A DNA stretch of 64,000 nt from Nitrosopumilus sp. (GTDB lineage: Archaea; Thermoproteota; Nitrososphaeria; Nitrososphaerales; Nitrosopumilaceae), in the NCBI GenBank assembly GCA_965207445.1, contig CBDBLX010000002.1, positions 1,399,849 through 1,463,848 of the forward strand. The letters are read 5' to 3'. Position numbers and translations under genes: made by a program. Within the stretch, counting starts at the first letter, position 1, and each line of letters begins with the position of its first letter. Positions 4,478-38,397 of the stretch are shown here, piece after piece. Below the pieces are notes generated by a model. It was not told the DNA's origin and ran no database searches. It was given only the letters and a program-made list of their open reading frames with translations.

Positions 4478-5146
4478 TTATAAAATAATTACCCAAAAAC
4501 GCACCAACAATACAAGCAACAAAGTAGCAAGCAACACAGGTACAACTGGCGCTGCTACCATCACCATCGTTCCCACTTGTCCGGGTTCATACTCCCAATT
4601 ATTATTATTATGTTGATGATCAAAGGGAGTTTTAAACAAGTAATAGTTACCATTTTGGTCCTCAATTGTAATGACATGCCTCTCCCATATGCGTCTATTA
4701 TGTGTCAAGAAAAATAACACAAACATGTACAAAAAATTACAAATGCGATTACCACTAAAACTACGAGTCTCAAAGTTATGGCACATCCCTGATAATTTCC
4801 AATGTATATTCAACACAACATTATAAGATACAACTAGTATACCAGTTAATAATATAGAGCCCAATATGACAATGCATGCCAAATATTGTACATCAAATGC
4901 AGATGGCAGTACTAGTGAAATCATCAGCATTATAATGGCATCTCCTGATGCCATTGCCTTTATACGATATAGGACAAACACAAGTGTAATTCCAATAAAC
5001 ATTGTAAGAACTTCTTCAAGTATGATACCATATGTGACATATTCCCATACTATGATACTCTGAGCAATGATTGCCACAATGATATAGTGACGGTCTCTGC
5101 CACATATGGTGCGATATGCAATATCTGTGCAAGAGTTTACACTCAA
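4478..5146 (-). CDS. A24 prepilin/preflagellin peptidase (FlaK/PibD-like)
   Basis: Multi-TM protein with N-terminal TD..YR, a GxGD-like motif MASGDAII, and a C-terminal VMVAAPVVPVLL resembling the archaeal A24 tail. Confidence 0.7.
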   Translation of the reverse strand: MSVNSCTDIAYRTICGRDRHYIIVAIIAQSIIVWEYVTYGIILEEVLTMFIGITLVFVLYRIKAMASGDAIIMLMISLVLPSAFDVQYLACIVILGSILLTGILVVSYNVVLNIHWKLSGMCHNFETRSFSGNRICNFLYMFVLFFLTHNRRIWERHVITIEDQNGNYYLFKTPFDHQHNNNNWEYEPGQVGTMVMVAAPVVPVLLATLLLVLLVRFWVIIL

Positions 5147-5212
5147 TATGATTAAAATAATTGATAGGCGTAAATATTCTGATAATGATACAACGTCTAG
5201 TGTTATGGTTTG

Positions 5213-5938
5213 TCACCTTGCAGTATCAATAATTTTTTCACGTATCTCTGGCAATGACAACTGATGTTCTTGCTCTATTGTGAGTGTGGGTTGATACGAC
5301 TGTAGCAATATATCGCGTATCATATTACAGCGCTGCTCTACCCACACACTTTGCATGATCAATGAATTGTGCATGTGCTGTAATCTATTCAAGTCACAGT
5401 ATATGACATATTTGGTCGTACCCAACAACAAACCCTTTTTGCACAATATGTGGAGTATCTTTCCTACGTACGATGTATTCATCATAGGCCAATCCTCAAA
5501 AAAATTGTATATTGTCTCTTTTGGTAGTTTTGTGTTGTTGGTGTTATGATGATGATGATGGCTTACTTTGGATAGATTGTATATACTCCATACATCATGA
5601 TATACTTTTGCCAATATACATAATCCTGAAAAAGATATGCCAATCTCATTTGATAAAATAAACCCCAGACCGGCTACTGTTGGGTATGGTAAATTATAAT
5701 CCATGTTGTACTTGTACAGACCCCTACTAACAACTGCAAACAGATGATTATCATCATCACATTGATCAAGTGTATTGTTAGAGTCACGTCTCACAATCCC
5801 ATCACTGATCATATCACGTACAAGACATTGTGTAGTCTTTCCACCACATACAGCATTTATCAATTGAGAGGTAATTTTTCTGCGATAATATATCAGTCTC
5901 TTTATATTTTTGACTCTATTGTCATACTCTATGTTCAT
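5213..5938 (-). CDS. Hypothetical protein, possible winged-HTH domains
   Basis: 241-aa ORF overlapping the upstream gene by 4 nt; segments such as YVGKILHILCKKGLL. Confidence 0.55.
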   Translation of the reverse strand: MNIEYDNRVKNIKRLIYYRRKITSQLINAVCGGKTTQCLVRDMISDGIVRRDSNNTLDQCDDDNHLFAVVSRGLYKYNMDYNLPYPTVAGLGFILSNEIGISFSGLCILAKVYHDVWSIYNLSKVSHHHHHNTNNTKLPKETIYNFFEDWPMMNTSYVGKILHILCKKGLLLGTTKYVIYCDLNRLQHMHNSLIMQSVWVEQRCNMIRDILLQSYQPTLTIEQEHQLSLPEIREKIIDTAR

Positions 5939-7203
5939 TTGAAAAATATCACCCCACGTGCATTTTGATGTTTTTTTGTAAACTGTTGTAAATCAGCAGG
6001 ATTAGCAAATGTTGTCATTTTTATATCACTTGCAGAGATATGAGTATCAAATACACTTACACCCGTAGTGTGAGCTGCTGCAGATAGTCCTAGCCACTCT
6101 TCTGCTGCTTGTGGCATCATGTATGGTGATGATGCACCAATATCATCTAATTTGATGATATGTTGGTTGTAGTCATCTGTGAGTTTTGATACACGTTTTG
6201 CTTTGGGGTCGATGATATATGCCGGATGTGTCTTTGTTTTTGGAATTATGATAACGTTGCCTGGAATATTTTTGAGTATCGACTTTGATTGTTCTATGGT
6301 CTTTTTTGTAATCTTTTCACCATCAGGGCATATTATGTTCGCCTCGTATTTTTTATCTGTTGTGTTTTGATCTAAATTATTTATATGGTCATCATTATAA
6401 TCAATGGTGTTTTTGATATTTTTGTTTGTGTTGCATGTATCTTTCTCTTTTTTATAATCTGCCTCATCATATGCAACATCATTTATTATAATTTTGATTT
6501 CACCAGGTGTTGGCCATGTAAATCTAGCATCTGTTATGGTTCTATTTTTTGTCATTTGTGAAATCTTTTTTGCAATTGTGCTTTGATCTTTTGATTTTGA
6601 TATTATGTGTGGTATGTAATATGGCAATACAAACTGCGATAATCTATCTGCTAAATGCTCGCATAACTCTGTTAATATCTCTATAACATCATCAGATATT
6701 GGCAATGTGAGGAATTTTGCATTGATAGTATTGTCAATTTGTAATAGTTTGGTGTAATTTTCATCTGGTGTTACATGTGACTGTTTTAGATATTTGACAA
6801 CTTTATCCAATTTTAGTGGGTTAAATCCACTAGGTCTTTGATTGTACTGGACGTGTTTTATTATATAGTCATGTATTGTATTGTATGATTCAATTTGAGA
6901 TTTTAGACAGAAGGGTTTTTTGTTATGTGTTGTTGTTGCTGCTGCTGCTGCTGCTGCTTTTAGTGCACCCAAGTATATGTTGGTTCCTTCTAATAAATAG
7001 TAGTGTTGATTTTCTTCAGATTGTAATATCTGGGCAACTTTGATGAGTGGTAGTTTGTCTTTATTACCTTCTTTTATTATATTTTCATATAAATTAATCT
7101 GTTTTTTTATTGGGATTGTGACATCTAGTGAATGCCGTACAATATGATTGATGGGGATACAATCGATGCGCGGTGGTGGCAGTAAGATAGTTTTTTTCAT
7201 CAT
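5935..7203 (-). CDS. ParB/sulfiredoxin-like N-terminal domain protein
   Basis: IPINHI...LPLIKV..HYYLLEGTNIYLGALKAA resembles ParB box II, with a degenerate GxxR; 4-nt overlap with the TFB-like gene. Confidence 0.5.
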   Translation of the reverse strand: MMKKTILLPPPRIDCIPINHIVRHSLDVTIPIKKQINLYENIIKEGNKDKLPLIKVAQILQSEENQHYYLLEGTNIYLGALKAAAAAAATTTHNKKPFCLKSQIESYNTIHDYIIKHVQYNQRPSGFNPLKLDKVVKYLKQSHVTPDENYTKLLQIDNTINAKFLTLPISDDVIEILTELCEHLADRLSQFVLPYYIPHIISKSKDQSTIAKKISQMTKNRTITDARFTWPTPGEIKIIINDVAYDEADYKKEKDTCNTNKNIKNTIDYNDDHINNLDQNTTDKKYEANIICPDGEKITKKTIEQSKSILKNIPGNVIIIPKTKTHPAYIIDPKAKRVSKLTDDYNQHIIKLDDIGASSPYMMPQAAEEWLGLSAAAHTTGVSVFDTHISASDIKMTTFANPADLQQFTKKHQNARGVIFFK

Positions 7204-8000
7204 GCTAATTTGCCCCTTTGGTCATAATTGATAATATTTTTACCACATGATGTGATTCCACACTGCTCTTTTGCCAATTTTATTGCAAGTTTTACTGCAT
7301 GTGCTGATGAGTAGTTTTGCAATGTAGGTATGATTGATTTTGCATTGTTTGCAACCTCATTTACAATATGCTCAGGGTAATTGTTATGCAGTGTCGCAAT
7401 CTCACTATTTAAGATGAAACTGGCATTATTATTATGATGATGATTGGTAAGACTAGGAACCATGTCCAAAAACCCAATCTTTTTTATGATCATGTTACCA
7501 TTTTTATCTAAATAAGATGATGCTTCCATTGACACTTTGAGATAATTATAAACTCGCTTTACATTTAGATTCATACGTATTGCATCATGTAATTTTTGTT
7601 CGTTGATTGGGTGTCCATGTGCTCTACATACCACGTAAAATACTAGTACCAGTATTTTGGCTTTGGTCATTTTTAGATTGGCACGTAGTTTTTGATACCA
7701 CTTCCAGATGTCTCGTGATGTAATGCTGGTAATGTATAGTTTTTCTGTAATGTTGCTAATAACTGCTAAATCAGGATTCTGCTCACAAATAAAGCGATTC
7801 CCATATAATTTGGGATCATTTTTGCTCCCTAGTGTTTGCATCAAGTACAGGTTAATCTGATTTTCACCATGAACAATCATATTTTGGGTATGTTCTTTGA
7901 CTATACCACACATACGGCATACAATCTCACCGTCATTTGTTATGATTTCATGTTTAATGTCATGTTTACATTCCATTTGACTCACCCTCTGCTTTTGCAA
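7200..8000 (-). CDS. Transcription initiation factor IIB (TFB)-like protein
   Basis: N-terminal Zn ribbon CKH..IITNDGEIVCRMCGIV, then cyclin-like helices (ISNITEKLYI...LVFYVVCRAHGHPI). Confidence 0.7.
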   Translation of the reverse strand: MQKQRVSQMECKHDIKHEIITNDGEIVCRMCGIVKEHTQNMIVHGENQINLYLMQTLGSKNDPKLYGNRFICEQNPDLAVISNITEKLYITSITSRDIWKWYQKLRANLKMTKAKILVLVFYVVCRAHGHPINEQKLHDAIRMNLNVKRVYNYLKVSMEASSYLDKNGNMIIKKIGFLDMVPSLTNHHHNNNASFILNSEIATLHNNYPEHIVNEVANNAKSIIPTLQNYSSAHAVKLAIKLAKEQCGITSCGKNIINYDQRGKLA

Positions 8001-8149
8001 AAATGCAATTCATACAATACTCTGAATTATGCTCTATATAACATTTATGATAAATTTAGTATAAATAATTTTATTATTGTTTGATAAATTTGTTAAGAAT
8101 ATATAGTACATGAATGATAATATTACTATTATTATAGTAATGGTGATGT

Positions 8150-8788
8150 ATGGTGAAATCTCAACGAAAACTACAACATAGAGTAAAGCGGGGTTATGAT
8201 TACTTTGTGGTATCAATACCTAGTGAGATGGTCAAGTGTATGAGTTATGATGATGGTAAATGTAAAAAGTATGATGTAGAGTTGGAATTAAAATCGGATA
8301 ATTCAGTTGTAATGGGTATTGTAAAACCATCACCATCATCACCATCAGCACTACAGCCACCATCACCATCATCACCATCAAATGTTAAAACATCTGATAA
8401 GTCAGGGTGCAATAAAATGATGGTAGATACTAGTGCAGATACACCTATCACTAGTACACAAAGATTAGAATCTAACACATGTGCCAGTGCAACCACTGCT
8501 GATGTTATATCTGATGCACCCATTTTGCATATTAATACACCTACTACTGTAATATCAAATGAGCATGTCGCATCTGTAAATTTTGTTGAAAAACAAAATG
8601 ATATGAAATCACATGATTGTGAGTCAAAGAATATGGTAGATGGTGTAAAGACAGATGGTGTAAAGACAGATGGTGTAAAATCTGATAAGATTAAAAATAA
8701 TCTAGAAACTGATAAAACTATATTAAATAATATAATAAGTGATAAATACACTGTAACCATTTATGGGGACAATGATGATGTTGATTGA
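8150..8788 (+). CDS. AbrB/MazE-like N-terminal domain protein with a low-complexity tail
   Basis: RKLQHRVKRGYDYFVVSIPSEMVK..DVELEL; divergent from the TFB operon; DGVKT repeats. Confidence 0.6.
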   Translation: MVKSQRKLQHRVKRGYDYFVVSIPSEMVKCMSYDDGKCKKYDVELELKSDNSVVMGIVKPSPSSPSALQPPSPSSPSNVKTSDKSGCNKMMVDTSADTPITSTQRLESNTCASATTADVISDAPILHINTPTTVISNEHVASVNFVEKQNDMKSHDCESKNMVDGVKTDGVKTDGVKSDKIKNNLETDKTILNNIISDKYTVTIYGDNDDVD

Positions 8789-8846
8789 TAGTCTTCTTCT
8801 CCCATCATATCTAAGGAGTGTACACATCTCACTATAATCATCATCA

Positions 8847-8925
8847 GTAACAGTTCAATTTATTTTAAAACTTAGGTACAGATTCATTGCCTATATCTGG
8901 CACAGACATGAGGTTGAACGGTTAC
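8847..8925. mobile_element. MITE family A (~80 bp, IS66-type TIRs)
   Basis: GTAACAGTTCAA...TTGAACGGTTAC; interior similar to the copies at 20424 and 50902. Confidence 0.75.
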
Positions 8926-9029
8926 ATGTCTTGCATGTACGACTACTATTGATATTTTTTGTAGTACTACTGTACGGTCTATGGATAATGATAAGATGTG
9001 AGGATCTTCATCGAGGTGAGCTGACAAGT

Positions 9030-9192
9030 GGAAAATTATTCACAATGGATTATTCATGGATTCAATTGTCGGATTAATCAGAAGACTGCTTCGGCGGGAA
9101 TTAGAGCACGGTGGTTCCTTGCCATTGTAAATCTGCCGCACTGTATAATCAAAAATAAGATCATTAAAATTGAACACATTACAAACTACTGA
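9030..9192 (+). mobile_element. Isolated right end of the ISH3-like element
   Basis: Closely similar to ~42797-42960, including the TIR CACATTACAAACTACTG. Confidence 0.75.
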
Positions 9193-9310
9193 CATGTAGA
9201 AAAGGAAGATCAACGGCAAGGGACTCTGGGTGGCAGGACATTAAATGGTGTGCCTTAGACACGGTACTGTAAAAGAACGGCAGGGTTTTGGATGCAAAAG
9301 AGCATAAGAG

Positions 9311-12127
9311 ATGAATTTAAAAATCAATAATTTGACAATATATGATAGTATGAAAAGACATGATATGTTTGTTCCCGAAGCACTAGCAAAGCTTTCTGAG
9401 ACTGTCAAGTATGATGATGAGCAAATAACTGCTGCAAAGGAATGGATCAGTAAGATAAAACAAAGAGCACTAGTCAAAGAAGAAGATCATTATGATGAAT
9501 TTCGAGAAAATGTTCTTGTTAGAATTTTAAGGTATGATCGCAAAAAAATAATTACATCTGCATCTAAATCCGGTAGAGAACCTGACTTTACTTTTGGAAG
9601 TATGGAACTCTGTGTAGAGGTCAAAGGACAAGATACTGACTTACTTAAACCGCAGGGCAGAAAGTATGCTGAATATAAAACCCCCATGTTACAGGCCACA
9701 TTATACAAGGGTCAAGGTTACAAGAATGCATTTTGTACAAATTACAAGGACTATTTATTGATAGGTGAGAATAGTCGTCGGCATATGTTTAATTTTATGG
9801 ATATTGAATGTGATGGCGGTAAAATCAATACTCAAAAATTGCAAGAATTTTTGTATCTATTTTCACAGGAACATCTTATTGAGAAACAGAGCTCAAATAG
9901 GCTCGTTACAGAAACTATCATGTTCAATAGAGATATTACCAAAAAATTTTACGACTTGTTTGATCAAACGCGTAAACTATTAATCAAAGACATATCAAAA
10001 AATGGAGCGATCTCACAATCCGAGGCCATGTTGCATGCACAGACAATACTAAATCGACTAGTATTCATATTGTTTGTTGAGGGTAGAGAGATGGTGGGAG
10101 ATAAATGCCTATTTAGAAATCAAACACTAAATGTGTTGAAAAACCATCCCACATCAAAATCTAGGGGTGTCTGGGACATGATAAAAAACAGACTGTTTGT
10201 GTATTTCAATGAAGGTAATGGTGATCTTGATATATCTGCATTTAATGGAGGATTGTTTGATTCTGAAATACCTGAAAATGTATGGTTTGCAGATATTGAT
10301 CAAAGCATTACACGAACGACTATTCAAAAAGATGATGCAGAGTTAGAAGAAATTCTCAAAAAATATGCTGTGAATCCAATAATAATAAACATGATTGAGA
10401 TGGCAAGGTATGACTTTGCAGATAAACTTGGACCCAATTTACTAGGCAACATATTTGAAAAATCAATGTCTGCTCTTGAAAATGCAGGTATTGAAGGTGA
10501 TCTGTTGCGCAAAAATACAGGTGCATATTATACACTTGAAAATGTCACATCATACATATGTAGAAATACCATAATACCATACTTGAGTAAAAGTGGGGAT
10601 GCAAAAACCGTTGAAACTCTCATAAAAGAATACACAGATGAATATGACATTGAAACCCTTGAAAAAAAACTAGAATATTTACGCATACTTGATCCGGCGT
10701 GTGGCTCTGGTGCGTTTTTGACAAAGACAGTTGATATATTATTAGAAATACATCATCAGATACACGAATATAAAAAAATTCGTGATTTATTTCAGAACAA
10801 AAATGGTGCGTCACTAGATGCGTGGTTGCAAGAAGAGATGAGTCAAAAGATCATAGAGCGAAATCTTTTTGGTTTTGATCTTAATGCCAAGGCAGTTGAG
10901 ATAGCCAAACTTTCACTCTTTTTGAAGATTGCCTCAAAAGGAAATAGATTGCCTGATTTGTCATCATATATTGTAGATGGAAATACACTAAATGTCACGA
11001 TTTTAGACTATGATAATGAGAAATTTCTTGAAATAAAGACGCATGGTGGCTTTGATATTATAGTTGGTAATCCTCCGTATGTAGAAGCATCAAAAATAAA
11101 GTATGTGCCAACCATATCTAAAACAAAAACATGTGGAAATACCTTTGCATACTTTTTTGAAAAGGGTTTTAGTATGTTAAAACCAGGTGGCAGACTTGGC
11201 TATATTGTACCGGTTTCAAGTGTATCGACTCCGCGCATGGTACCACTCCAAAAATTCCTTGTAGAGCAAAGTACAGAATTAAAAATAAGCAATTATGATG
11301 ACCGACCAGGAAAGTTATTTGAAGGATTGGAGCATTGCAGATCGTCTATAATATTATGTAAAAAAAAGAAGACACATACAAATGATAACGATTGCAAAAT
11401 ATACACAACAGGCTATAAAAGATGGCATACAAAAGACGTTGGAGGTCTTTTCAAAAATCTACACTACATTAACCATAATGAAAAAACAGATACTTGTATA
11501 CCAAAATTAGGTGATGAGATCGAGTTATCAATATTTAGAAAAATATTCAAACATGATAATAATAATAATAATAATAAAAGTACACATGATCTCAAAAGTA
11601 AACAAGTGATATATCATAACGCTCCACAATATTGGATACGTGGAATGAATTTTACGCCTCTTTTTTCTAGAAACGGAAAACGTGAGACTTCTAGTCATGA
11701 CAAGTTGCTTTTAGTTAAAGATGATGATGAGTCCACCATAATGACCGGACTACTCAACAGTTCATTATTTTATTGGTTTTTCATAAAGACGTCAAATTGT
11801 AGAGATTTAGGGCAAAAAATAATAGATGATTTTCCACTTTATGGAAAATGGAGTAAATCTGAATTGAAAGTAATACGGACACTTGTCAGTGACCTTATGA
11901 AAGATTATAAGAAAAATTCACTCAAAATAACGACTGTTAACAAACGTACAGGTATACAAGAAAAGGAAACATTTTTTGCAAAAAAGAGCAAGCACATAAT
12001 AGATAAAATAGATGATGTATTTGCAGCCCATTACAAACTGAGCGATGAAGAGAACTATTACATAAAAAACTTTGATCTTGATTTTAGAATGCAAGAACAA
12101 ACTGATATAAATTATATGGTTAAATAA
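9311..12127 (+). CDS. Type IIG (Eco57I/TaqI-like) restriction-modification enzyme, N6-adenine MTase fused to endonuclease
   Basis: EPDF..VEVKG nuclease motif, TNY, FNGGLF, GAYYT, ILDPACGSGAFL, FDIIVGNPPY, LLNSSLF. Confidence 0.9.
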   Translation: MNLKINNLTIYDSMKRHDMFVPEALAKLSETVKYDDEQITAAKEWISKIKQRALVKEEDHYDEFRENVLVRILRYDRKKIITSASKSGREPDFTFGSMELCVEVKGQDTDLLKPQGRKYAEYKTPMLQATLYKGQGYKNAFCTNYKDYLLIGENSRRHMFNFMDIECDGGKINTQKLQEFLYLFSQEHLIEKQSSNRLVTETIMFNRDITKKFYDLFDQTRKLLIKDISKNGAISQSEAMLHAQTILNRLVFILFVEGREMVGDKCLFRNQTLNVLKNHPTSKSRGVWDMIKNRLFVYFNEGNGDLDISAFNGGLFDSEIPENVWFADIDQSITRTTIQKDDAELEEILKKYAVNPIIINMIEMARYDFADKLGPNLLGNIFEKSMSALENAGIEGDLLRKNTGAYYTLENVTSYICRNTIIPYLSKSGDAKTVETLIKEYTDEYDIETLEKKLEYLRILDPACGSGAFLTKTVDILLEIHHQIHEYKKIRDLFQNKNGASLDAWLQEEMSQKIIERNLFGFDLNAKAVEIAKLSLFLKIASKGNRLPDLSSYIVDGNTLNVTILDYDNEKFLEIKTHGGFDIIVGNPPYVEASKIKYVPTISKTKTCGNTFAYFFEKGFSMLKPGGRLGYIVPVSSVSTPRMVPLQKFLVEQSTELKISNYDDRPGKLFEGLEHCRSSIILCKKKKTHTNDNDCKIYTTGYKRWHTKDVGGLFKNLHYINHNEKTDTCIPKLGDEIELSIFRKIFKHDNNNNNNKSTHDLKSKQVIYHNAPQYWIRGMNFTPLFSRNGKRETSSHDKLLLVKDDDESTIMTGLLNSSLFYWFFIKTSNCRDLGQKIIDDFPLYGKWSKSELKVIRTLVSDLMKDYKKNSLKITTVNKRTGIQEKETFFAKKSKHIIDKIDDVFAAHYKLSDEENYYIKNFDLDFRMQEQTDINYMVK

Positions 12128-12235
12128 ATTCAATGTGTTATTATAATTTCTGGTATATGAAATAATACGTTATTTATTTATACATATAATAATATGTCAT
12201 TGGAAACAGAAATATCTATTATGTTAGAAATTATG

Positions 12236-12327
12236 ATGGTGTTGGAAATATGGTGTTGGAAATATGGTGTTGGAAATATGGTGTTGGAAATATGGTGTTG
12301 GAAATATGGTGTTGGAAATATGGTGTT
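12236..12327. repeat. Tandem repeat, 14-bp unit ATGGTGTTGGAAAT x6.6
   Basis: Read directly; no spacers. Confidence 0.95.
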
Positions 12328-13357: not shown

Positions 13358-13413
13358 TTGACTTGCCTTTATTTTATTATCGCGTGTGTCATATAATTTT
13401 ACTCTATTATCTA

Positions 13414-13615: not shown

Positions 13616-13711
13616 CATGACTGTGTGCGTTCTAGGCAAGCATTTAACTAGTCATATATTTGTGAATCAGGTATATAATTCCCCTTTTTAATTAAAGGAA
13701 CAAAAGATGAT

Positions 13712-28639: not shown

Positions 28640-31600
28640 CTAGACGGTAATCTTTTTGATCTGTTTGTATGCCACACATGATAGTATTAATCCCATTATT
28701 ACTAGTGATATTAACCACCATCTAGGCTCATCTAATTTCTTTGGGGCATATGGTTTTAGTGGTTCGACGTATGCATGTGCCTCACCGCCCCATTCATTAT
28801 ACAATATGATGTGTAATGTTTGATTCAGAGTAGGTGGGTTTCGCTGGGGTGGTGGTTGCTGCGACTGTGGCGTATGTTTTACATCATTACCCTCATCTTT
28901 TTGCACTAAAAGCGACAATGATGCAGTAGGTATGATACATAGATTATCATTATTATTGGAAAAACAGTAGGGTATTGTCACATTGTTAATTTCCACTCTT
29001 TTAACCATCCCAAAATTATATGGTTGTGAAATGATAAGACTACCAACATGTGTCTCTACTATGGCAATATTATCAGTTCTAGCATTTATGGTTATATTCT
29101 CTAGACCTCCAAAATTATAATATTCAGAGTTGTATGTGTGTATAGTATCATTAATTGATATGTGACGTGTGATTGGAGAAGGTAAAGATAGTCCTAGATG
29201 GTATGGTAGGCCTAATCGAAATGATTCAAGGTCATTTTTTGCATAAAGTTGTACTAGTGTTTGAATGTCATTTATCTCCGAGAGTGTGCGATTATAGTGA
29301 TAAGTGGTATCAATTATGATTTGAGGTTGTGAGGTTGTTGTATTATGATGTGGGGTAATGTTGTCAGTAGATGTAGATGAAGAAAAAAAGAACGTAAAAA
29401 ATGATGAAAGGGAGGTATCATTGGTGAAAATCGAACTCCATGGAATATTTTTTTGTCCACGTTTTTTGTTTTCATTTTTGTTATTGTTGGTATTGTTATT
29501 GTTGGTATCATCTAAATTATTACCATATTGCACATCATCATCATCATCACCATCTTGCAAAGATGGTTGGGATGTATCATTGTAAAATGCACTCATCTGT
29601 TTTTTGTGCGCCTCTATTATATCAGATGATATTGTAAAGTCAGCAAACTGCAGACTGGTTCGCAATATTGTAGTATTTAGTACACCATAACTATTCCACT
29701 CTTGTTGCATATCATATGTATCATCTAGTATCGCATTGGTGATTATGGTATTGTTTTTTGTATCGTGCATAATCTTGTCATGAATATATGATGAGAGATA
29801 TTCTACATTATCATTATTGCCACGATTACCTACAATGGCAGCATCAATATTACCAGATGTACTAGTATTACCAGATGTACTAGTATTACCATATTGCATA
29901 GTAGTAAAATTATACGGTTCGACTTTCAATCCCAACAAGTCTGCTGTTTGTATCGTGCCGTTCTGGTCAATTGATGTAATAATGATTTGTTTGGTAAATG
30001 GTGCATCTACATAGCGCATTATAGTCTTGTATAGATGTGTCTGTGCTAAACCTGCAAAATCATAACTATATGCATCAACTACACTAGTGATATTTTCATA
30101 TCTAGTGCCACCTGGCGGATGAGGTATAATGCTGCGATCATTATAGTTTATTGTATTGTTATTAAAAACATCAAAAGATGTTAAATTAAACAAAGAATTG
30201 AATCTCGGCAAGCTCTGTATATTTGGCAACCCTGTAGTAATATTTTGCAAAAATCTATTAGGTGCAATGTTGTTAATAGTGCTATTATTTGTCAGGGGAT
30301 TTTCATTATTGCCAAATATGTGACCGTCATTGAGAAATGTGTCGTTTAGACCAGTATTCCTAATCATATTAGCATGATCTAATATTGTAATGTTTGGTGT
30401 ATAATTTCTAGTTGTAAGATTTTTGTACCCAAAGACATAATCAGATATTGGCCACTCTAATAGTGCCACACCGTATCCTTGTTGTATGAACATTATACTA
30501 TTAGCATAATTTGTGTAAGAGAGGGCTGAAGAACTATTATTATTACTATGACCATATAATATAATATTACGCGCTTCATCTAATCGAGGTTTCTCTGCAG
30601 TGATAAAATCAATCTGATTGCCATAGTAATAGTCATAGGCAGTATTTGTCGTCTGCCAACTGTTGATATATGAGCGGCGTTCGGGCCACAAGATTTTATC
30701 TTTGTGTATGATAGTGTTAATATCATTGCCATTATTATCATTGATTTGATATCGCCTATTATTGTTATCACTGGTATGATCATTATATATTATAGTCGCA
30801 ACCTGATGTGTAGTTGATGGGACTATTATGGTCTGATTTATACTAGTACCATTAGATAATATTGTTTCAACAATTTTCGTTTTGGTTGTATGAGGCCACA
30901 ACTCATCTTGCCAACTGCCCATATATTTCATAATAATTCCACGTCGATTGTCATAACTATACTTGTGGCCATCTGCCAATACTGGATACGAATATGCAAT
31001 CTCATATACCGGATTGTACGCTACAATTGTAGCATTGGTTGTGCCATTACCATATGCCACATCTCGATTGATATTGTAGGCAGTCATATTATATGTAAAA
31101 TCATACAAACCATATGCAAAGTTATTTGTCGCATTGTATATGGTCATTCCATCACCATTACCATATGTGAGGAATTCGGTGTGCCATGTCTGTGGATATT
31201 GTAATTGAGTTTTATGTGTACAAGGAAATGTTTCTGTAGTGTTGATGCAATGAAAATGATCCTCTATTGGTAAAATTGTATTATTATGATGTATTGTAAA
31301 ATTAATGTGCTTGTACCTTTCATCTTTCCACTTCCATGATGGTTCATGATAAACATAAACAGGGTCATTATGATAATAGGTGCCATCTTTATTTTTAGCC
31401 TCATATTTACCATCATGTTTACCATCATGTTTACCAGTATGGTGATACATTGGGGGTTTTGTTAATATGACATGTAAAGAGGGATCTTGTATCAGAGGTG
31501 CAAAATTCTTGGTTGTAGTCTTTATGGCTTTGATCGGCGTCCCACCTGCCTGATGATATGGTGTTAGATATGTGCCCTTTAGTGTAAAATCAAATACTAT

Positions 31601-32707
31601 AGTATCTTTGCCATTTATGGTTAGAGTGTTGGGGTATGCATTTCCCTTTTTTTCATCTATTATAACATTACATGTATCAGGTGCTACCACATACGACGAA
31701 TTATCAATATTGGGTGGAATGTCATTTACATTTATTCCTCTAGATGCAAGTTCATCATACAAACAGACCCTTTGAGTATGAGGTCTTATCTCTACTGTAC
31801 CATATATGCACCCTGAATCAGCTTGTAATCTATCAGTATGACACATCATATTGACGCGCTCATCAAATTGCCTCTTACTATTAGAGTCTGCATATGATTC
31901 AAACTCTTTTTGTGATATTGTACTATTACCTTTGACTAGTTGCCATACATACGTGGGCCGATTCAGTATATCCTTGTCACTACGCACATTAGAATCATAT
32001 ATAATATGAGGTAAACTGTTTATTTTACTCATATCACATAATGGTGGGTTTTGTGTCCTATGTGATAGTGCCTTCCAATCATTTGTTATCCAGACATCTG
32101 TACTTGCAGCAGTACCATATCCCTTGGCTGCGCGTCGCTCTACATTTGTGATCTCACCTTTTTTTGATAAAAATGGCTTTTCATACACCTCATAGTGATG
32201 ATAAAACAAGTATGCGCAGTTTTGCCATGTGCAGTGATGTCTGCATGTGTCTTGAGGTATTCGTTGCATCAAATAGTAATGGTTAGTCTTTGTCAAATCA
32301 ACAGTCAATTCATTGCTATTATGATGAATTGTGGTTTTTCTAATAGGAGGCATGATACCGGTATTTTCATTATATTCGCCTCTATACACGGCACTATAAT
32401 TCAAATTTAGATTGCTAGTCTCTATAATAGGCGTATGCAAAGAACACGAACCGGGATCAGTAATATCTGAATATCGTATCAGATAGTAATAACCATCTCC
32501 AGGATAATACGTACCATCAGGATTCTGCCTTGATTCATTTAAATATGTAATAGGATAACGTTCAGTCTTTATTGAAAAAAGACATTTTGTAGCACTGTGG
32601 TCAGCATGTGCCATATCAATAATGATATGAATTTCAAATATGATTATGAATAATAAAATGATAATAATAATAATAGTTGCAATACCCCCAATAGTGTAAA
32701 GATGCAC
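28640..32707 (-). CDS. Large secreted, membrane-anchored protein (putative adhesin/mating-pair protein)
   Basis: N-terminal hydrophobic signal, repeated N(P/K)DGTYY motif, Cys-rich segments, C-terminal TM plus basic tail. Confidence 0.7.
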   Translation of the reverse strand: MHLYTIGGIATIIIIIILLFIIIFEIHIIIDMAHADHSATKCLFSIKTERYPITYLNESRQNPDGTYYPGDGYYYLIRYSDITDPGSCSLHTPIIETSNLNLNYSAVYRGEYNENTGIMPPIRKTTIHHNSNELTVDLTKTNHYYLMQRIPQDTCRHHCTWQNCAYLFYHHYEVYEKPFLSKKGEITNVERRAAKGYGTAASTDVWITNDWKALSHRTQNPPLCDMSKINSLPHIIYDSNVRSDKDILNRPTYVWQLVKGNSTISQKEFESYADSNSKRQFDERVNMMCHTDRLQADSGCIYGTVEIRPHTQRVCLYDELASRGINVNDIPPNIDNSSYVVAPDTCNVIIDEKKGNAYPNTLTINGKDTIVFDFTLKGTYLTPYHQAGGTPIKAIKTTTKNFAPLIQDPSLHVILTKPPMYHHTGKHDGKHDGKYEAKNKDGTYYHNDPVYVYHEPSWKWKDERYKHINFTIHHNNTILPIEDHFHCINTTETFPCTHKTQLQYPQTWHTEFLTYGNGDGMTIYNATNNFAYGLYDFTYNMTAYNINRDVAYGNGTTNATIVAYNPVYEIAYSYPVLADGHKYSYDNRRGIIMKYMGSWQDELWPHTTKTKIVETILSNGTSINQTIIVPSTTHQVATIIYNDHTSDNNNRRYQINDNNGNDINTIIHKDKILWPERRSYINSWQTTNTAYDYYYGNQIDFITAEKPRLDEARNIILYGHSNNNSSSALSYTNYANSIMFIQQGYGVALLEWPISDYVFGYKNLTTRNYTPNITILDHANMIRNTGLNDTFLNDGHIFGNNENPLTNNSTINNIAPNRFLQNITTGLPNIQSLPRFNSLFNLTSFDVFNNNTINYNDRSIIPHPPGGTRYENITSVVDAYSYDFAGLAQTHLYKTIMRYVDAPFTKQIIITSIDQNGTIQTADLLGLKVEPYNFTTMQYGNTSTSGNTSTSGNIDAAIVGNRGNNDNVEYLSSYIHDKIMHDTKNNTIITNAILDDTYDMQQEWNSYGVLNTTILRTSLQFADFTISSDIIEAHKKQMSAFYNDTSQPSLQDGDDDDDVQYGNNLDDTNNNNTNNNKNENKKRGQKNIPWSSIFTNDTSLSSFFTFFFSSSTSTDNITPHHNTTTSQPQIIIDTTYHYNRTLSEINDIQTLVQLYAKNDLESFRLGLPYHLGLSLPSPITRHISINDTIHTYNSEYYNFGGLENITINARTDNIAIVETHVGSLIISQPYNFGMVKRVEINNVTIPYCFSNNNDNLCIIPTASLSLLVQKDEGNDVKHTPQSQQPPPQRNPPTLNQTLHIILYNEWGGEAHAYVEPLKPYAPKKLDEPRWWLISLVIMGLILSCVAYKQIKKITV

Positions 32708-32912
32708 ATTTACAATATTTGAAATGCTAAAAAGATGAAAAAATGAACCGATGTTTCATTTGTATATAATGTATCTTTGCCAAGCCATCATACAACAAAG
32801 TAATAAAAAATCAATTATATGATTTGTATATAATTTGGATATAATTTGGATATAATAAATAAACAAAAAATAAAACAGAATAAATAAGAACAAGTATTTT
32901 CAAATCATTTAT

Positions 32913-33251
32913 TTAATTATTTTTTGTTCTCAAAGTATCGACCATAACGTGAGTATATTCACCGGCTCCCTCTATTTTGAGTTCTACTGTTTTACCGATC
33001 CATTGTGCAGTATCCTCCCCAAATATTTGTATGAGGGCATTACGACTCTTGTTGTTCAGAGACCAGTTCTTGGGGTCATCTGAGCGTTGTCCACCATATT
33101 CTATTCCTAGTGAGATTTTTTCAACCTCTTTACCATTCTGATCAAACTTTACATATTCACCTTCACTGGTGATAGTTATGGCAGTAATTCGGTTTTCTTG
33201 CACAAACTTGGCAGTAAGATGATTTCGCATTGGTACAGGTTTTACAAGCAT
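32913..33251 (-). CDS. Phage/plasmid-type small protein, probable OB-fold ssDNA-binding
   Basis: WSLNNKSRNALIQIFGEDTAQWIGKTVEL motif; strong SD GGAGGAGGTGA upstream. Confidence 0.6.
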   Translation of the reverse strand: MLVKPVPMRNHLTAKFVQENRITAITITSEGEYVKFDQNGKEVEKISLGIEYGGQRSDDPKNWSLNNKSRNALIQIFGEDTAQWIGKTVELKIEGAGEYTHVMVDTLRTKNN

Positions 33252-33411
33252 GTGTTTCTTTCACCTCCTCCGACTGTAGTCCCCGCCGGCAAGCTCTTGT
33301 TTACAACATAACAAGCCAAATGTGAGATTGTACTTGCGTTTTTTTCTAGTATTGTTTTGGATGTACGCCATACATAATGTAGTATTTGAGAGTACAGTGA
33401 TCGTATCATCA

Positions 33412-33579
33412 TTATGGCTTGACCTCTTTATTTTTTTTGATATTGTCTAATTTGTCACGCAAAGCCAAATCTGTGAATTGTGTAATGTTTGTTATAGTGT
33501 TATCAACTTCCAAATATGATTCTATTTTCTTTATTAGAGCAGTACGTACAGCCACAGTACGCCATAATCTTTCACTCAT
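33412..33579 (-). CDS. Ribbon-helix-helix regulator (55 aa), not in the ORF track
   Basis: MSERLWRTVAVRTALIKKIESYLEVDNTITNITQFTDLALRDKLDNIKKNKEVKP. Confidence 0.65.
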   Translation of the reverse strand: MSERLWRTVAVRTALIKKIESYLEVDNTITNITQFTDLALRDKLDNIKKNKEVKP

Positions 33580-33639
33580 ACAAGATACTAGTGAATATTA
33601 TAAAAGGCAAAGATGAGTGTATGTTGAATTTTTACTAGT

Positions 33640-34083
33640 ATGATAATAATGAGTTTGAGAATCATGACATCTAGACGTCAGTTATGCTATTTGTGCGATG
33701 AAATTACCACCACACAAGTCATGAGGCTTAAAAATTCCTCTACAATTACATACATGCAAAAAGACGATGTCATGATATTTTATATCAAAATAGCAAATAT
33801 AGATACAAAAAAGACGACACTAGATGTAAAAAAGATAGCAGGTGAGTTGGAGATTACAACAGATATGATAAGATGTATGATAGATGAGAATAAATCCCTC
33901 TTTGAGATACGACGTTCAGACATTAGACTGATAGAACAGGTCAAGTCAAATACCATTTTGGTTAACTTTTTTTATTATTATGATGGGTGTGATGGTGATT
34001 TGCACTGGGGCAAGCAAGGTGCACTTACACAAATTCTCATAGAGTCTGATCACTGTCAATCCATTATCAAGGCACTAGTGTAA
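33640..34083 (+). CDS. Hypothetical protein
   Basis: 147-aa ORF divergent from the RHH gene. Confidence 0.45.
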   Translation: MIIMSLRIMTSRRQLCYLCDEITTTQVMRLKNSSTITYMQKDDVMIFYIKIANIDTKKTTLDVKKIAGELEITTDMIRCMIDENKSLFEIRRSDIRLIEQVKSNTILVNFFYYYDGCDGDLHWGKQGALTQILIESDHCQSIIKALV

Positions 34084-34404
34084 AGTCAGATTAATCATAA
34101 AAAATAGTTCAAAGAAAATATTGTACAAGAGTATTTTATCAATTCAAATATTTGATTTGACGTATCTCAAACAACAACAACAAAAATAAATGTATATGAT
34201 TATATGCTATGTACAATATCAAGACAAGTCACATGATCGGATGTAAATACATATCAGTACTATTATTACCACCAGTACTATATTACCACCACAATCATTA
34301 CCACTGCCACCATCATCAATATTATTCAACATAAACAGCAAAGAGATAATTCCTTTTTAAAAAAGAATTATCTCTAAATTTTTCTTTATATGTATAAATA
34401 ACTG

Positions 34405-34830
34405 TTATGTGTGACCAAACCAAAACGCTTTGTTATTCTGCGTAACTATTGTAATTGATGTACCACTGTCACTACAAGTAATACGGCTAATTTTCCCAAT
34501 TAATAGTGGTGCTGAAAATATCTCATCATTTAATTTACAGGTACGTTTTGATTCAATACCATTTATGAATATTTTATCAACTACAATATCATGATTGCCA
34601 ATATTGATAACATCTATGATAGTGTTGTTATCATGTGTGATAATCGCAGGTGATGTGGTAATAATCTCTATTAGTTTGAGATCTTCTTGTGTCTGTATTT
34701 TTAACGTGTTGATTTTATCTTGCTGTGATAGTGTAAATGTAGAGACATCATCTATCATTGTATCATATATAACAACAAAAAATACACCAACCACACCAAA
34801 CAGTAATAGAAATTGTATAATTTGATTCAT
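34405..34830 (-). CDS. Pilin/archaellin-like protein
   Basis: Hydrophobic N-helix (MNQIIQFLLLFGVVGVFFVVIY), then VINIGNHDIVVDKIFING; start overlaps the upstream stop. Confidence 0.65.
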   Translation of the reverse strand: MNQIIQFLLLFGVVGVFFVVIYDTMIDDVSTFTLSQQDKINTLKIQTQEDLKLIEIITTSPAIITHDNNTIIDVINIGNHDIVVDKIFINGIESKRTCKLNDEIFSAPLLIGKISRITCSDSGTSITIVTQNNKAFWFGHT

Positions 34831-35366
34831 TATACTGCCTCACAAAATGTACTTTGTGTATCTTTGATTGCTTGGACAAGTATGATTGATTTAGGTGATA
34901 TTGTAATTGTTGCAGGTAGTGTATTTTTTGGTGTTATTATGGTATTTTGTTGCGGCTCAATTTTACTGCCAACACCACTAGATAATTCAAAGAGAGTCGA
35001 GGTTTTAGATGTCTGCATAATAGAGCTTCCATTTACATGCATGATATCATAATAATCAATTATAGTATACCCTGTATTTTTTATCTCAATATGTGTCCAG
35101 TATGTATCTTTATACACTAAATGTGATTTTATATTTACAGTACATTGTATATTAGATAGTAATTGTGTTTGATGTGAATCAAACCATGCATAGAGAATGG
35201 ATGTAGTTATAATGACAATACTGATCAATACTAGTACTTCGATATACCCCGATACTGCCAGTCTGGGTTTGTGTTTTGAGTTTTGTTTTGCGTTTTGTCT
35301 GCACTCAAAATGAAATAATTTATCGATAATTTTTTTGCCAAAAATTTTACCACATATGAGAGTCAT
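34830..35366 (-). CDS. Archaeal type IV pilin
   Basis: Class III signal RLA|VSGYIEVLVLISIVII; IEIKNTG; 4-nt overlap with the VirB4 stop. Confidence 0.7.
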   Translation of the reverse strand: MTLICGKIFGKKIIDKLFHFECRQNAKQNSKHKPRLAVSGYIEVLVLISIVIITTSILYAWFDSHQTQLLSNIQCTVNIKSHLVYKDTYWTHIEIKNTGYTIIDYYDIMHVNGSSIMQTSKTSTLFELSSGVGSKIEPQQNTIITPKNTLPATITISPKSIILVQAIKDTQSTFCEAV

Positions 35367-37546
35367 TCTTTTTCAGCCTTTGTGTTGAAATAGTACTTGG
35401 TCTCTTGTTCTGTAGCCTCAAACTTGAGATATATCGCATTATCACTAGTTTGTAATAATCCATTGCCAGCACGAAAGTTAGTTACAAGTTCGATCTCAGA
35501 GTCAGTCAAGTCTAATGCCTTACCCGTAGCTAGTGCTGCTGATTGAGACATTTGCATTATAATTTTAGTATCAAATAATTCGGTTAGTTTAGAGTCACTG
35601 TCATCTAATGCGCGGTCCAAATCGCCGAACTGTTGTGTTGATAATGCAAAAATTAACGAACGCTTGCGCCCTTGTCTTGCAATATCGCCTATCTTTTTTA
35701 TTGACTGTTTGAGTTTTGTCATACGCCATGCCTCATCTAGCAATATGAACTTCCATTGTTTGGCAGGTAAAAGATTAACACGCTGCCATGCATACGCCAA
35801 TACTAATAATATTAAGAGTCCTTCGTATTCCTGACCATCTGTATGTTTTAGTGATATTATGATATGATCTGAGAATTGAGATATGTTCTCAGTGCAACCG
35901 TTTCCACTGTTTTCATTATGACTAGTATTATTATGACTAGTATCATTATGACTAGTATCATTACCCCCACTACTATCATTACACTCACAGGGCGGCAAAA
36001 ATACCTTTGATATACTACCCTCTACCAAATCACGCATGTACTTTTTTGCCTCTTGGCTACTCTTCTCATACAACTGAGTAATTGTGCTAACATTGTCACA
36101 TATTGCACGCCACTCACGTCGTACATGATTAGGTGCACTAGTTGCAACACCCACCAAATCTGCTGCCTCTACTTTGGTATCAAATAATACAAACGGATCC
36201 AATCCATATCTGTTGCCAGGTTTTATCTCTATAGCATCCAAGCCAAAATATGAGGCGTGCTCTATATATTCACCCTGAGGGTCTATTATAATACACATTG
36301 TATTGGGACGCTTTTCTAAAAACCGTTTTAGTATGATTTTATTTGTAAATGATTTGCCACTTCCAGTAGTACCTGCAGTGAATATGTTGTGATTCTTTCG
36401 CAGATTTACATCATATATAACAGGTCCTCTAGTATCCCTATTCATACCCAAAGGAATACCATTTGGAGCTTCAAGCATATCCGCAGATGAGAATGGGTAT
36501 AATATGTGTAAACTTTCTATTCCACCCAACCATGATGCACCATCACCATTGCACAGATCCGATTGTATACCAAATGATGTAGTGTATCGGATATTCATGG
36601 CATTGCAATTTCTCCGGACGGTTTTGTGTAAATCGTATAGTTCTTTTTTTGATAGAGCAAATATTGATGCTGTAATGATGAATGTGAATGTACTGGTATT
36701 TCCTAGTTCAAGTTCTTGTTTGATTGCCAATATATCTTTCATCTTTTTTTGCACATCTGCCTTTGTGGATTTTATGCCACTGTACAGTAATTCACGATGC
36801 TGCATCTTACGTAGTGCTACATCTGGTCTGATGGGTGTGATGTGTATCTGTATGCGATGAAATGTACTAAATACGTGATGTATCCATGCAGGTGGCAATA
36901 TAGTAGGTGCGCCATATATGGTGTAATTACGACCATATAATTTGGTGCCATTTATGGTACATGTATAATCACGCATATACTCTTTTTGAACTTTGATCTG
37001 TTGATGTGGCTCATCTATAGTATAGTTGAATCCTAGTCGTTCTAGAGTATCATCTAAAGGATCTATTGAATCTAGCATTACACGTGTTATCTCCATCTTT
37101 TTTTGTATAGTTTCATTTACATTATCACCATCACTTCCATATGAAACCATAATTGGTACACGTTCTAGCGTGATTGTAGCAGTATTCTCTAGCATCTTTA
37201 ATAATTCAAAGAAATCTGAGAGTTTGCGTTTTTGTCGCTCAACTGACAAAACCAAAAAGTTACTAGGGGAGATTGAATAAGAGTGATTATATTTTAACTT
37301 TTGAGTGGTGTTTTGGAAAAACATTCTAGCAAAATTATTATTGTTTTTAGTAGTGAGTGTGTTTTGGCCCACAGACAGATCCTCAAATAATTTTGCTTTG
37401 TGGTGTTTTTTAGCATGTGATTTCATGTTATTGTTCTGGTTATCGTTTCTGGGGTTGTTTTGGGGGTTGTTTTGGTTATTGTGGTGCTTGTTAACACTAT
37501 ACTTTTTGTCCTTTTTTTTTATCTTGCCTAATTTTCCAAATACCAC
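35363..37546 (-). CDS. VirB4/CedB-like (HerA/FtsK superfamily) ATPase
   Basis: GIPLGMN..PVIYD..NHNIFTAGTTGSGKS, IIDPQGEY, ILLDEAW, ARQGRKR..STQQ, GNGLL. Confidence 0.88.
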   Translation of the reverse strand: MVFGKLGKIKKKDKKYSVNKHHNNQNNPQNNPRNDNQNNNMKSHAKKHHKAKLFEDLSVGQNTLTTKNNNNFARMFFQNTTQKLKYNHSYSISPSNFLVLSVERQKRKLSDFFELLKMLENTATITLERVPIMVSYGSDGDNVNETIQKKMEITRVMLDSIDPLDDTLERLGFNYTIDEPHQQIKVQKEYMRDYTCTINGTKLYGRNYTIYGAPTILPPAWIHHVFSTFHRIQIHITPIRPDVALRKMQHRELLYSGIKSTKADVQKKMKDILAIKQELELGNTSTFTFIITASIFALSKKELYDLHKTVRRNCNAMNIRYTTSFGIQSDLCNGDGASWLGGIESLHILYPFSSADMLEAPNGIPLGMNRDTRGPVIYDVNLRKNHNIFTAGTTGSGKSFTNKIILKRFLEKRPNTMCIIIDPQGEYIEHASYFGLDAIEIKPGNRYGLDPFVLFDTKVEAADLVGVATSAPNHVRREWRAICDNVSTITQLYEKSSQEAKKYMRDLVEGSISKVFLPPCECNDSSGGNDTSHNDTSHNNTSHNENSGNGCTENISQFSDHIIISLKHTDGQEYEGLLILLVLAYAWQRVNLLPAKQWKFILLDEAWRMTKLKQSIKKIGDIARQGRKRSLIFALSTQQFGDLDRALDDSDSKLTELFDTKIIMQMSQSAALATGKALDLTDSEIELVTNFRAGNGLLQTSDNAIYLKFEATEQETKYYFNTKAEKE

Positions 37547-37558
37547 ATAATCAAATAC

Positions 37559-38098
37559 TCAACGACATTTAAGCCCAAAGTTGCGTGTTTGAATGAATCT
37601 ATATGTGCGTATAAATCCAGATATGTGGATCATGGCGCATATTGTTGCAATAATGCCAAACAGTGCAAGATTCCACACATAGGGCCATATCACATAAGGA
37701 ATAAAGTAAATTATACAAAACTCAATTGATAATGTTATCAATATAATAAGAGTTGATATAGTATATTTTGAAAAATGTTCATCTCTAAATAACTGGCATC
37801 TTAAAATATATCTCTGAGTGTATCGTATGATATATTTATTTACATAACGTAGTATAGGTGATTTTTCATGCATTGATATATGATGTCCACCACGTATAAC
37901 AGTATATGATACATCCAATACACTTGTAGCAAACCAAAGTATCACCATTATAAAATACCACATATCATACAATGTATGATCAACATTTTGCTCAACAATA
38001 TTGAGATACCAACTTATCAAAGCAATCGTCAAAAAAATTACAACGAGGACATCTTTATCATAATAATAAGAAGAAGAAAAAAGGGTGATGTTGGGCAT
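37559..38098 (-). CDS. Multi-pass membrane protein in the VirB4 operon
   Basis: About 4 TM segments, LDVSYT..EKSP motif; start overlaps the upstream stop. Confidence 0.65.
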   Translation of the reverse strand: MPNITLFSSSYYYDKDVLVVIFLTIALISWYLNIVEQNVDHTLYDMWYFIMVILWFATSVLDVSYTVIRGGHHISMHEKSPILRYVNKYIIRYTQRYILRCQLFRDEHFSKYTISTLIILITLSIEFCIIYFIPYVIWPYVWNLALFGIIATICAMIHISGFIRTYRFIQTRNFGLKCR

Positions 38099-38397
38099 TA
38101 GTATCTAATCCCAATTATTATCAACATGATGAAACCAATCACAGCTACTACTATCATAACATAACCTAGTGCTTCTAGTACTGCATCTCTGATCTCACTT
38201 GGCTCATCACAGTCAGGAGTGATTCCTGCAGTCTGATTGTTGAGATCTTCTTCAGTGCACAAATTACTAAGATCAACACCAGTTGTTTCTGAGATGATCA
38301 TAGGAGCTAATGTTCCCAATATTATCAATATTGCAACGCCCATTATTCCACTTCTCAGTTTCTTCATATCTTCTGGTCCTTTTTCTGAAAGTGCCAT
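38098..38397 (-). CDS. Two-TM VirB2/TrbC/CedA1-like conjugative pilin candidate
   Basis: 99 aa from ATG38397, two hydrophobic helices; first gene of the VirB4 operon, with a TATA-like TTTTATTATA about 20-30 nt upstream. Confidence 0.55.
   Translation of the reverse strand: MALSEKGPEDMKKLRSGIMGVAILIILGTLAPMIISETTGVDLSNLCTEEDLNNQTAGITPDCDEPSEIRDAVLEALGYVMIVVAVIGFIMLIIIGIRY

Follow-up and report, generated by a model that had tools for sequence, protein, structure and literature searches.

The combination of a type IV pilus with a type IV secretion system (T4SS) is already in print for integrated conjugative elements (ICEs) of the Thaumarchaeota. The elements NitNCS1-E3, NitGar-E3 and NitVie-E3 each feature TadC, FlaI, a peptidase, VirB6 and VirD4, and the rows shown include VirB4 for NitNCS1-E3 but not for NitGar-E3 or NitVie-E3 (Krupovic et al., 2019; PMC6563490). 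The locus described here lies in the 64,000-nucleotide stretch of a Nitrosopumilus sp. genome given above (the window, G000:C2:1399849-1463848; coordinates marked C2 refer to contig C2 of this host genome, G000). It is likely to be a pilus-bearing thaumarchaeal ICE that has become stranded in the chromosome, since its genes agree with the published definition point for point, the site of insertion is empty in relatives, and its spread is patchy. As in the ICEs of Krupovic et al. (2019), to the extent of the parts of that paper cited here (PMC6563490), VirB4, VirD4, VirB6, TadC, a FlaI-type ATPase, a prepilin peptidase and pilins are encoded, a TFIIB gene stands directly upstream of the ParB gene, gene order is shuffled, and no relaxase is recognised. 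Unlike those elements, the present copy has no recognisable integrase nearby and no clear att site and does not lie at a tRNA gene, and it features low-complexity lengthening of genes and a heavy intergenic load of insertion sequences (IS) and miniature inverted-repeat transposable elements (MITEs). A preliminary description of this stretch had raised the possibility of a novel machine; this does not hold, as the gene set, including the pairing of transcription factor B (TFB) with ParB and the absence of a relaxase, is already published for thaumarchaeal ICEs. What the locus offers beyond the known architecture is a testable nuclease tail on its coupling ATPase and the question of domestication.

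The elements NCAV2-E1 and NCAV2-E2 (also named ICE-1 and ICE-2) also feature VirB4, VirD4, VirB6 and a VirB2-like pilin; ICE-1 has the primase-superfamily 3 (SF3) helicase in common with the present element, and ICE-2, which the authors call immobilised, has in common with it the absence of an integrase (Abby et al., 2018; PMC5797428). In contrast to the present element, neither has TadC or a pilus ATPase among the rows listed, and their att sites of 21 and 24 bp lie at tRNA genes (PMC5797428). The Sulfolobales conjugative plasmids pNOB8, pARN4 and pAH1 and the Thermococcus plasmid pT33-3 encode a homologous VirD4/TraG with the same nuclease-like domain, pNOB8 and pT33-3 encode a homologous VirB4, and some of these plasmids carry TFB; however, all of them are free plasmids, whereas the present element is chromosomal. 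The Ups and Ced/Ted systems likewise bring together a type IV pilus for contact and a channel derived from VirB2, VirB4 and VirB6 (PMC9905601; bioRxiv 10.1101/2024.09.27.615246, in the parts cited here). As described there, Ced is chromosomal and imports DNA with CedB and CedD, whereas the present locus is inserted, and its products include a replication protein besides VirB4 and a VirD4 of the plasmid type. TFIIB genes lie near many pilus loci (Makarova, 2016; PMC4858521).

Site and gene content of the locus

An amoA match (E 1e-116) identifies the host as an ammonia-oxidising archaeon, whose genome of 2.6 Mb is 96% complete and 5.5% contaminated. A conserved 122-aa gene and birA lie next to each other and converge in all five genomes of the genus that were compared, whereas 92.8 kb separate the two in the present genome (G000:C2:1346008-1438833); the DNA between them is an insertion at a site empty in those relatives, extending beyond the left end of the window (Table 1). 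Repeated DNA makes up 21% of the insertion, with IS, MITEs and two type IIG restriction-modification (RM) genes lying between, not within, 26 core genes. The core frames are all open, are full length where homologues permit the comparison, and do not overlap any repeated element. The pilus ATPase, VirB4, VirD4 and VirB6 genes of this locus are the sole copies found on contig C2, and the linkage of pilus and T4SS genes here is far beyond chance.

The preliminary description had named a pilus ATPase, TadC, pilins, an A24 peptidase, VirB4, VirB2, two giant proteins, a TFB and a ParB, and had proposed that a type IV pilus and a channel of T4SS type are joined in a single locus. Profiles and homologues bear out these parts at their coordinates, and the pairing is conserved among relatives (32 of 51 VirB4 places and the ATPase tree, below). 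Both aspartates of the A24 peptidase are present and are invariant in six of six aligned homologues; its frame stays open 23 codons further upstream, and the true start probably lies up to that many codons before the one given. The third pilin (34830..35366) was recovered solely by a profile built from the pilins of 22 relatives. The pilus ATPase is the only one found in the host genome, a second T2SSE match (C2:1625206) having been rejected as a pilus motor because its N-terminal sequence and context are those of a PIN-domain ATPase. A reading of the 543-aa possible minor pilin as a homologue of cluster c19 was not used, as profiles did not recover the match. Between the UpsA-like pilin and the pilus ATPase lies a gene fragment for an SDH/ClpP-fold protease (window 20663-21166), of which a longer copy occurs at C2:1642183.

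No VirD4 or VirB6 was recognised in the preliminary description, which allowed that such genes, together with an integrase and a relaxase, might lie to the left. Within the window the absence stands, but the missing transfer genes sit 1-14 kb to its left, in the form of a VirD4-type coupling ATPase, a VirB6-like channel protein and a primase-helicase; that flank yielded no integrase, no att repeat of published length and no relaxase. The Walker A motifs of both T4SS ATPases are intact, and the closest named plasmid matches of VirB4 and VirD4 are archaeal conjugative plasmids. The best Protein Data Bank (PDB) match of VirB4 is the VirB4 structure 4ag5, with the CedB model weaker (E 3e-7), and the VirB2-like pilin is composed of two hydrophobic helices. 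An alignment of 18 sequences served to model the VirB6-like protein (mean pLDDT 71), and the top four Foldseek matches of the model are TrwI/VirB6 of R388 (E 0.035-0.059, probability 1.0); weak TrbL matches occur in two of 18 homologues, and the profile of the protein found no useful match among PDB sequences. The putative VirB3-like protein is conserved in 15 of 24 regions without a family match, and its profile reached no solved structure at a useful E-value. No relaxase of a described MOB family was found among the scanned open reading frames (ORFs) of the window and left flank, where small or unscanned ORFs and remote homologues could escape.

Table 1. Features of the insertion and its right border, from left to right; C2 coordinates lie left of the window.
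Feature	Position	Strand	Basis or remark
Possible minor pilin, 543 aa	C2:1379353-1380984	-	left of window
Conserved protein, 242 aa	C2:1381100-1381828	-	
Small regulator	C2:1383006-1383407	-	
Thermonuclease-like anchored protein	C2:1383429-1385000	-	homologue in G066 matches thermonuclease family
Putative VirB3-like two-helix membrane protein	C2:1385074-1386021	-	
VirB6-like membrane protein, 559 aa	C2:1386154-1387833	-	predicted structure, Foldseek
Conserved protein, 488 aa	C2:1388382-1389848	+	
VirD4-type coupling ATPase, 1278 aa	C2:1391506-1395342	-	winged helix and nuclease-like tail
Primase-SF3 helicase	C2:1396427-1398703	+	family matches, covering mainly the helicase part
Insertion, right 39 kb	window 1..38985	.	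between birA and conserved 122-aa gene
A24 prepilin peptidase	window 4478..5146	-	E 4e-5, under Pfam cut-off
Conserved protein 3' of ParB, 241 aa	window 5213..5938	-	profile of 5 relatives E 5.5e-6; winged-helix-like by eye
ParB-like protein	window 5935..7203	-	G021 homologue E 5e-25
Divergent TFB, directly upstream of ParB	window 7200..8000	-	homologues E ~1e-28
Type IIG RM enzyme (cargo)	window 9311..12127	+	
Giant surface protein 1, 1279 aa	window 13712..17551	+	N-terminal signal, C-terminal anchor
TadC-type pilus platform protein	window 17581..19698	+	T2SSF E 6e-9; UpsF/BasF E ~1e-27
Type IV pilin (UpsA-like)	window 19769..20356	+	UpsA E 1e-7
Type IV pilus assembly ATPase	window 22210..23874	-	T2SSE E 5.7e-19; FlaI-type E 4e-62
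Type IIG RM enzyme (cargo)	window 24456..27338	-	
Giant surface protein 2, 1355 aa	window 28640..32707	-	C-terminal anchor
Protein of 112 aa	window 32913..33251	-	homologues in 2 relatives only
Protein of 147 aa	window 33640..34083	+	homologues in 3/24 regions; beside pilins in closest relatives too
Pilin-like protein (BasA-like)	window 34405..34830	-	BasA E 3e-4
Type IV pilin-like protein	window 34830..35366	-	overlaps VirB4 stop codon; profile of relatives' pilins E 1e-13
VirB4 ATPase	window 35363..37546	-	Walker A intact; NCBIfam VirB4 CD1110 E 2e-22
Four-helix membrane protein	window 37559..38098	-	coupled to VirB2-like gene; profile of 9 relatives E 6e-9
VirB2-like two-helix pilin	window 38098..38397	-	open frame 38098-38409, ATG start at 38397; T4SS_pilin E 0.003, weak
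9-bp direct repeat	window 38975..38983	+	second copy 4 bp past birA stop, left junction
Conserved host gene, 122 aa, right border	window 38986..39354	-	birA neighbour in relatives

The VirD4 tail and a possible route of transfer

The last 279 residues of VirD4 were modelled (mean pLDDT 80), and structural matches of the model place a winged helix at residues ~1069-1157 (Z ~11). For residues ~1164-1278 (165-279 of the model), the alignment is with the restriction nuclease PaqCI (111 residues, Z 9.8, rmsd 3.1), a match that is one row among many winged-helix rows; the Foldseek matches of the tail are filled by winged-helix proteins, and Pfam returned no nuclease family for it. A search of 1.84 billion representatives found 88 relatives, and among 96 pooled proteins, 49 of the 51 with at least 450 aa also carry the ATPase. 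An acidic motif is conserved: D is kept in 80 of 84 rows, and the counts for E-x-E are 87 of 90 and 87 of 91; D and E-x-E are invariant against three Sulfolobales TraG proteins, and the canonical lysine position is taken by glutamate. E-x-E variants of the PD-(D/E)xK fold exist, as in BamHI. The tail profile also matches TraG/VirD4 of pARN4, pNOB8, pAH1 and pT33-3 (four of four tested, E 6e-31 to 3e-21). By the model, the tail is predicted to have a PD-(D/E)xK restriction-nuclease-like fold.

This makes the tail, which may do the DNA cutting, a candidate for the missing archaeal relaxase. We tentatively propose, at somewhat less than even confidence, that archaeal conjugation could proceed without a separate relaxase, with the coupling ATPase's own winged helix and nuclease cutting and loading the DNA. 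Nucleases of the PD-(D/E)xK type normally do not stay bound to the cut end, so that the tail would act unlike a bacterial relaxase. It is also unlikely to be universal, as two published VirD4 forms, of 425 and 445 aa by their coordinates, are probably too short to hold it. No paper naming the domain was found in the literature searched, in which subscription literature was thinly covered. A Replic_Relax row of the Atlas (score 0.83, 33% of members) was kept as a lead only, and cluster c18 was not used as an N-terminal half of VirD4 because profiles did not recover the match. A Panacea (SocA-like) antitoxin gene adjoins the VirD4 gene (G000:C2:1390637-1391119).

If the locus works as its genes suggest, the element's own TFB would turn on the transfer genes, and the peptidase, TadC and pilus ATPase would assemble a type IV pilus from the three pilins. 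By analogy with Ups pili, the pilus and the giant anchored proteins might catch and hold a partner cell. VirB4 and the VirB3-like, VirB6-like and VirB2-like proteins, named by homology, would form the mating channel, and the VirD4 ATPase, to judge from its domains, could bind DNA by the winged helix, cut it through the nuclease-like tail and pump it out. In mobile relatives, an integrase would excise the element, and the primase-helicase and ParB would copy and partition it. The present copy is probably unable to excise alone, since no integrase was found nearby; if it still transfers DNA, it would do so from the chromosome.

Relatives and the state of the present copy

VirB4 was matched in eight of 40 relatives. 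Across the family, 75 of 260 genomes have it, among them 10 of the 44 from the genus; this tally includes three unpublished genomes (G215, G234 and G256) used for no other result. Where a few published elements were known to carry this VirB4, its range now takes in about three in ten of the family's sampled genomes. Linkage was followed in 39 VirB4-positive genomes of at most 20 contigs (34 from the family tally and five from the search of 40 relatives), and 15 genomes without a VirB4 match served as control; the 51 listed VirB4 places were counted (21 weak matches are unlisted), with integrase rows taken in only where they fell near such a place on the same contig. Of the 51 places, 24 have a pilus ATPase no more than 4 kb from VirB4, and at 32 the distance is at most 30 kb; the linkage of pilus and VirB4 genes suggested earlier thus extends across relatives. 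Integrases lie within 60 kb at 10 places, three of them pilus-bearing. Pilus-type ATPases also occur in eight of the 15 control genomes. A quick, unrooted tree has a split (SH-aLRT 99) of 24 vs 10 rows: the 24 include every one of the 18 VirB4-linked pilus ATPases and six unlinked or distant rows, and the 10 are unlinked ATPases; six of seven control ATPases sampled from three genomes fall outside the VirB4-linked group. The pilus ATPase is therefore a group of its own that travels with VirB4. Pairwise distances of VirB4 and the linked ATPases are correlated (rho 0.76, 14 loci, 0 of 2000 permutations), as can arise from shared host ancestry alone.

VirB4 proteins of the same genus are scattered over a FastTree phylogeny, and flanks and gene order vary among the 24 regions that were mapped, as expected of a mobile family. 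One genome, G129, has two copies. The genome search for VirD4 found only close relatives (18 of 54), and mapping placed VirD4 in 11 of the 24 regions. At some loci (G068 and G110), no pilus ATPase was found beside VirB4 and VirD4, which indicates that the pilus is an optional module. Some of the comparison loci may be published elements, and would then not be independent of Krupovic et al. (2019). Decaying copies occur in the same genus, with the pilus ATPase reduced to fragments (G021:C1:1458200-1484203) or split by an IS (G288:C2:1698000-1721800), or with VirB4 and VirD4 truncated (G075:C1:1542600-1545100). Related loci in two other genera (G053:C1:1375400 and G066:C1:642063) carry a TBP-like gene.

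The preliminary description found no recognisable integrase or classical relaxase, and the family scans and integrase searches agree. PF00589 (tyrosine integrase) gave one match, 0.9 Mb away, and none within ~0.4 Mb of the locus; PF00239 (serine recombinase) gave none in the genome search, and the integrases of three relatives, used as queries, gave none in C2 1.34-1.47 Mb. The 9-bp repeat shared by the junctions is a possible eroded att site or target duplication, although a control of 5000 random gene-end pairs gave 36 with a repeat of such length and the 30-base window was picked post hoc. A comparison of tRNA ends with the genome gave no att repeat bracketing the locus among the matches listed, and longer repeats common to both flanks were rejected as att sites, those checked being dispersed IS or MITE copies. 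With no integrase found nearby and at most a 9-bp repeat at its junctions, this copy, with its core genes intact, seems to have lost its integrase and is probably immobilised. As the published ICE-2 has none either, the absence bears on activity and not on assignment to the ICE family. Relics of related elements are found elsewhere (G000:C2:2373607-2404200), where tRNA-Arg(TCT) precedes two further copies of its own 3' end (2377272 and 2385049), integrase fragments, an intact VirB2-like pilin paralogue 225 bp past the second repeat, a truncated third VirB2-like copy and an actin-like ATPase fragment.

Several points weigh against the identification as a stranded ICE. The VirB2 and VirB3 labels are weakly supported, and the VirB6 fold matches all have E above 0.03, none reaching E 0.001. 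Pieces homologous to integrases occur at C2 204-205 kb, 643 kb, 898 kb and 2374-2378 kb, divergent integrases escape PF00589, and an enzyme could act from elsewhere. Also, 41 of the 51 related places have no integrase nearby, which is more than a purely mobile family suggests. Lastly, the insertion holds genes with chromosomal homologues in relatives, and the 92.8 kb may represent more than one event: two such genes stand at the right edge of its left 33 kb, which may therefore be a separate arrival.

The element could instead have been captured and kept by the host for adhesion and chromosomal DNA exchange, as a domesticated machine resembling Ups plus Ced but driven by export. We consider this unlikely, although the locus is the only pilus system found in the host genome, its 26 core frames have stayed open and free of repeats in so repeat-laden an insertion, and several genera have VirB4 in every or almost every genome sampled (4 of 4, 4 of 4, 3 of 3, 9 of 10 and 4 of 5). 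Third-position GC is near that of the host core (0.288 vs 0.309 +/- 0.036), and read depth over the right part of the element equals host-gene depth in three runs of one sample, the sequencing contigs having been compared on window 27500-46000 only, with the left end outside. Furthermore, 9 of 16 single-nucleotide polymorphisms (SNPs) in element genes are silent and none creates a stop, but this set is small and confined to those listed (40 of 543 rows). Homopolymer runs amount to 12.8 per 1000 residues in the element vs 4.5 in host core proteins, and to 14.1 in ten element families vs at most 5.3 in 20 of 24 comparison regions; the host core value itself compares with 1.5. The host-like GC and raised homopolymer runs point to long residence, with retention or relaxed selection, and the runs fit relaxed selection equally well. 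Against domestication, moreover, stand the empty site in all five relatives and the retention of the primase-helicase and ParB, which belong to a self-replicating element. Joints in the sequencing contigs, with short sides lying in repeats, were not taken as excision. A further sequencing run (X5), with a small share in short pieces alone, was not read as evidence on habitat. Expanded Asn, Gln, Thr and Ser tracts are seen in many proteins of the window, housekeeping proteins included, at ~3x the rate of relatives' homologues, and the host genome is rich in IS and MITEs.

Two further readings concern how the locus moves DNA, or moves itself. A still-mobile element, using an integrase from elsewhere or one too divergent to detect, would accord with the full transfer and replication set, the integrase homologues elsewhere in the genome and the 9-bp junction repeat; it is nonetheless very unlikely, as the two published att sites considered measure 21 and 24 bp (PMC5797428), repeats of that length turned up neither at the junctions nor among the listed matches of tRNA ends, and depth shows neither excess nor deficit. 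A Ced/Ted-type import system linked to an Ups-like pilus, which is also built of VirB4-, VirB6- and VirB2-like parts in the sources cited above, finds some echo in the matches of TadC and one pilin to the UpsF and UpsA models, far below cut-off. This reading is already largely refuted and retains hardly any probability: the CedB model reaches 29.7 bits where 700 is the cut-off and has no match in the genome search, VirB4 models score higher, both a primase-helicase and a full plasmid-type coupling protein are encoded, and the locus, with its variable flanks, is inserted and not a conserved chromosomal one. Of the two origins offered in the preliminary description, the ICE is thus the likely one, and the Ced-like system finds no support, given the VirB4-like ATPase, the export-type coupling protein and primase-helicase, and the insertion at an empty site. 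That relaxase-free, nuclease-tailed conjugation and retention as the host's sole pilus should both apply, giving an export-type chromosome-exchange machine and a young domestication parallel to Ced/Ted, is distinctly improbable.

Other genes of the island and its surroundings

The TFB gene overlaps the ParB gene on one strand. Pfam gave no match for the window's own TFB and ParB proteins, and the labels come from homologues, of which six of seven match TFIIB or its Zn ribbon and two of six match ParB_N. Both giant proteins feature an N-terminal and a C-terminal hydrophobic segment. The first has homologues in 10 of 24 regions and no PDB or Pfam match, and is likely an adhesin or mating-pair stabiliser. 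The second has conserved cysteines, 39 N-glycosylation sequons and homologues in 13 of 24 regions, including loci without a pilus ATPase; its profile found no PDB match at a useful E-value. An OB fold had been ascribed to the 112-aa protein (32913-33251), but the label was not upheld: it has no Pfam or PHROG match, only NCBIfam TasA at E 0.007, and its Atlas look-alikes are unnamed phage proteins.

The left 33 kb of the insertion contains immunoglobulin (Ig)-repeat surface proteins, defence-like ATPases and IS. Large surface proteins with Ig, NHL and GSDH repeats (2315, 895, 778 and 1183 aa) are encoded at G000:C2:1346659-1376474, along with two defence-type AAA ATPases, one of which adjoins a PIN-like gene. 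Two TM0106-family RecB-like nucleases also lie inside the insertion (window 2489-4051 and 12554-13357), and G288 has a homologue ~25 kb from its own element. Between the first RM gene and the small nuclease, ~7 tandem copies of a 14-bp unit (window 12236-12333) form a possible iteron or origin. To the right of the insertion, a Dam-like methyltransferase faces a short EcoRV-like endonuclease fragment (window 43581-44819), followed by archaeal 23S and 16S rRNA genes (window 55601-60214) and tRNA-Ser(CGA) (window 63013-63096). Among the matches from near the start of C2, tRNA-Gln, tRNA-Gly and others recur on contig C1 of the host genome (121 kb), which may duplicate that region in the assembly.

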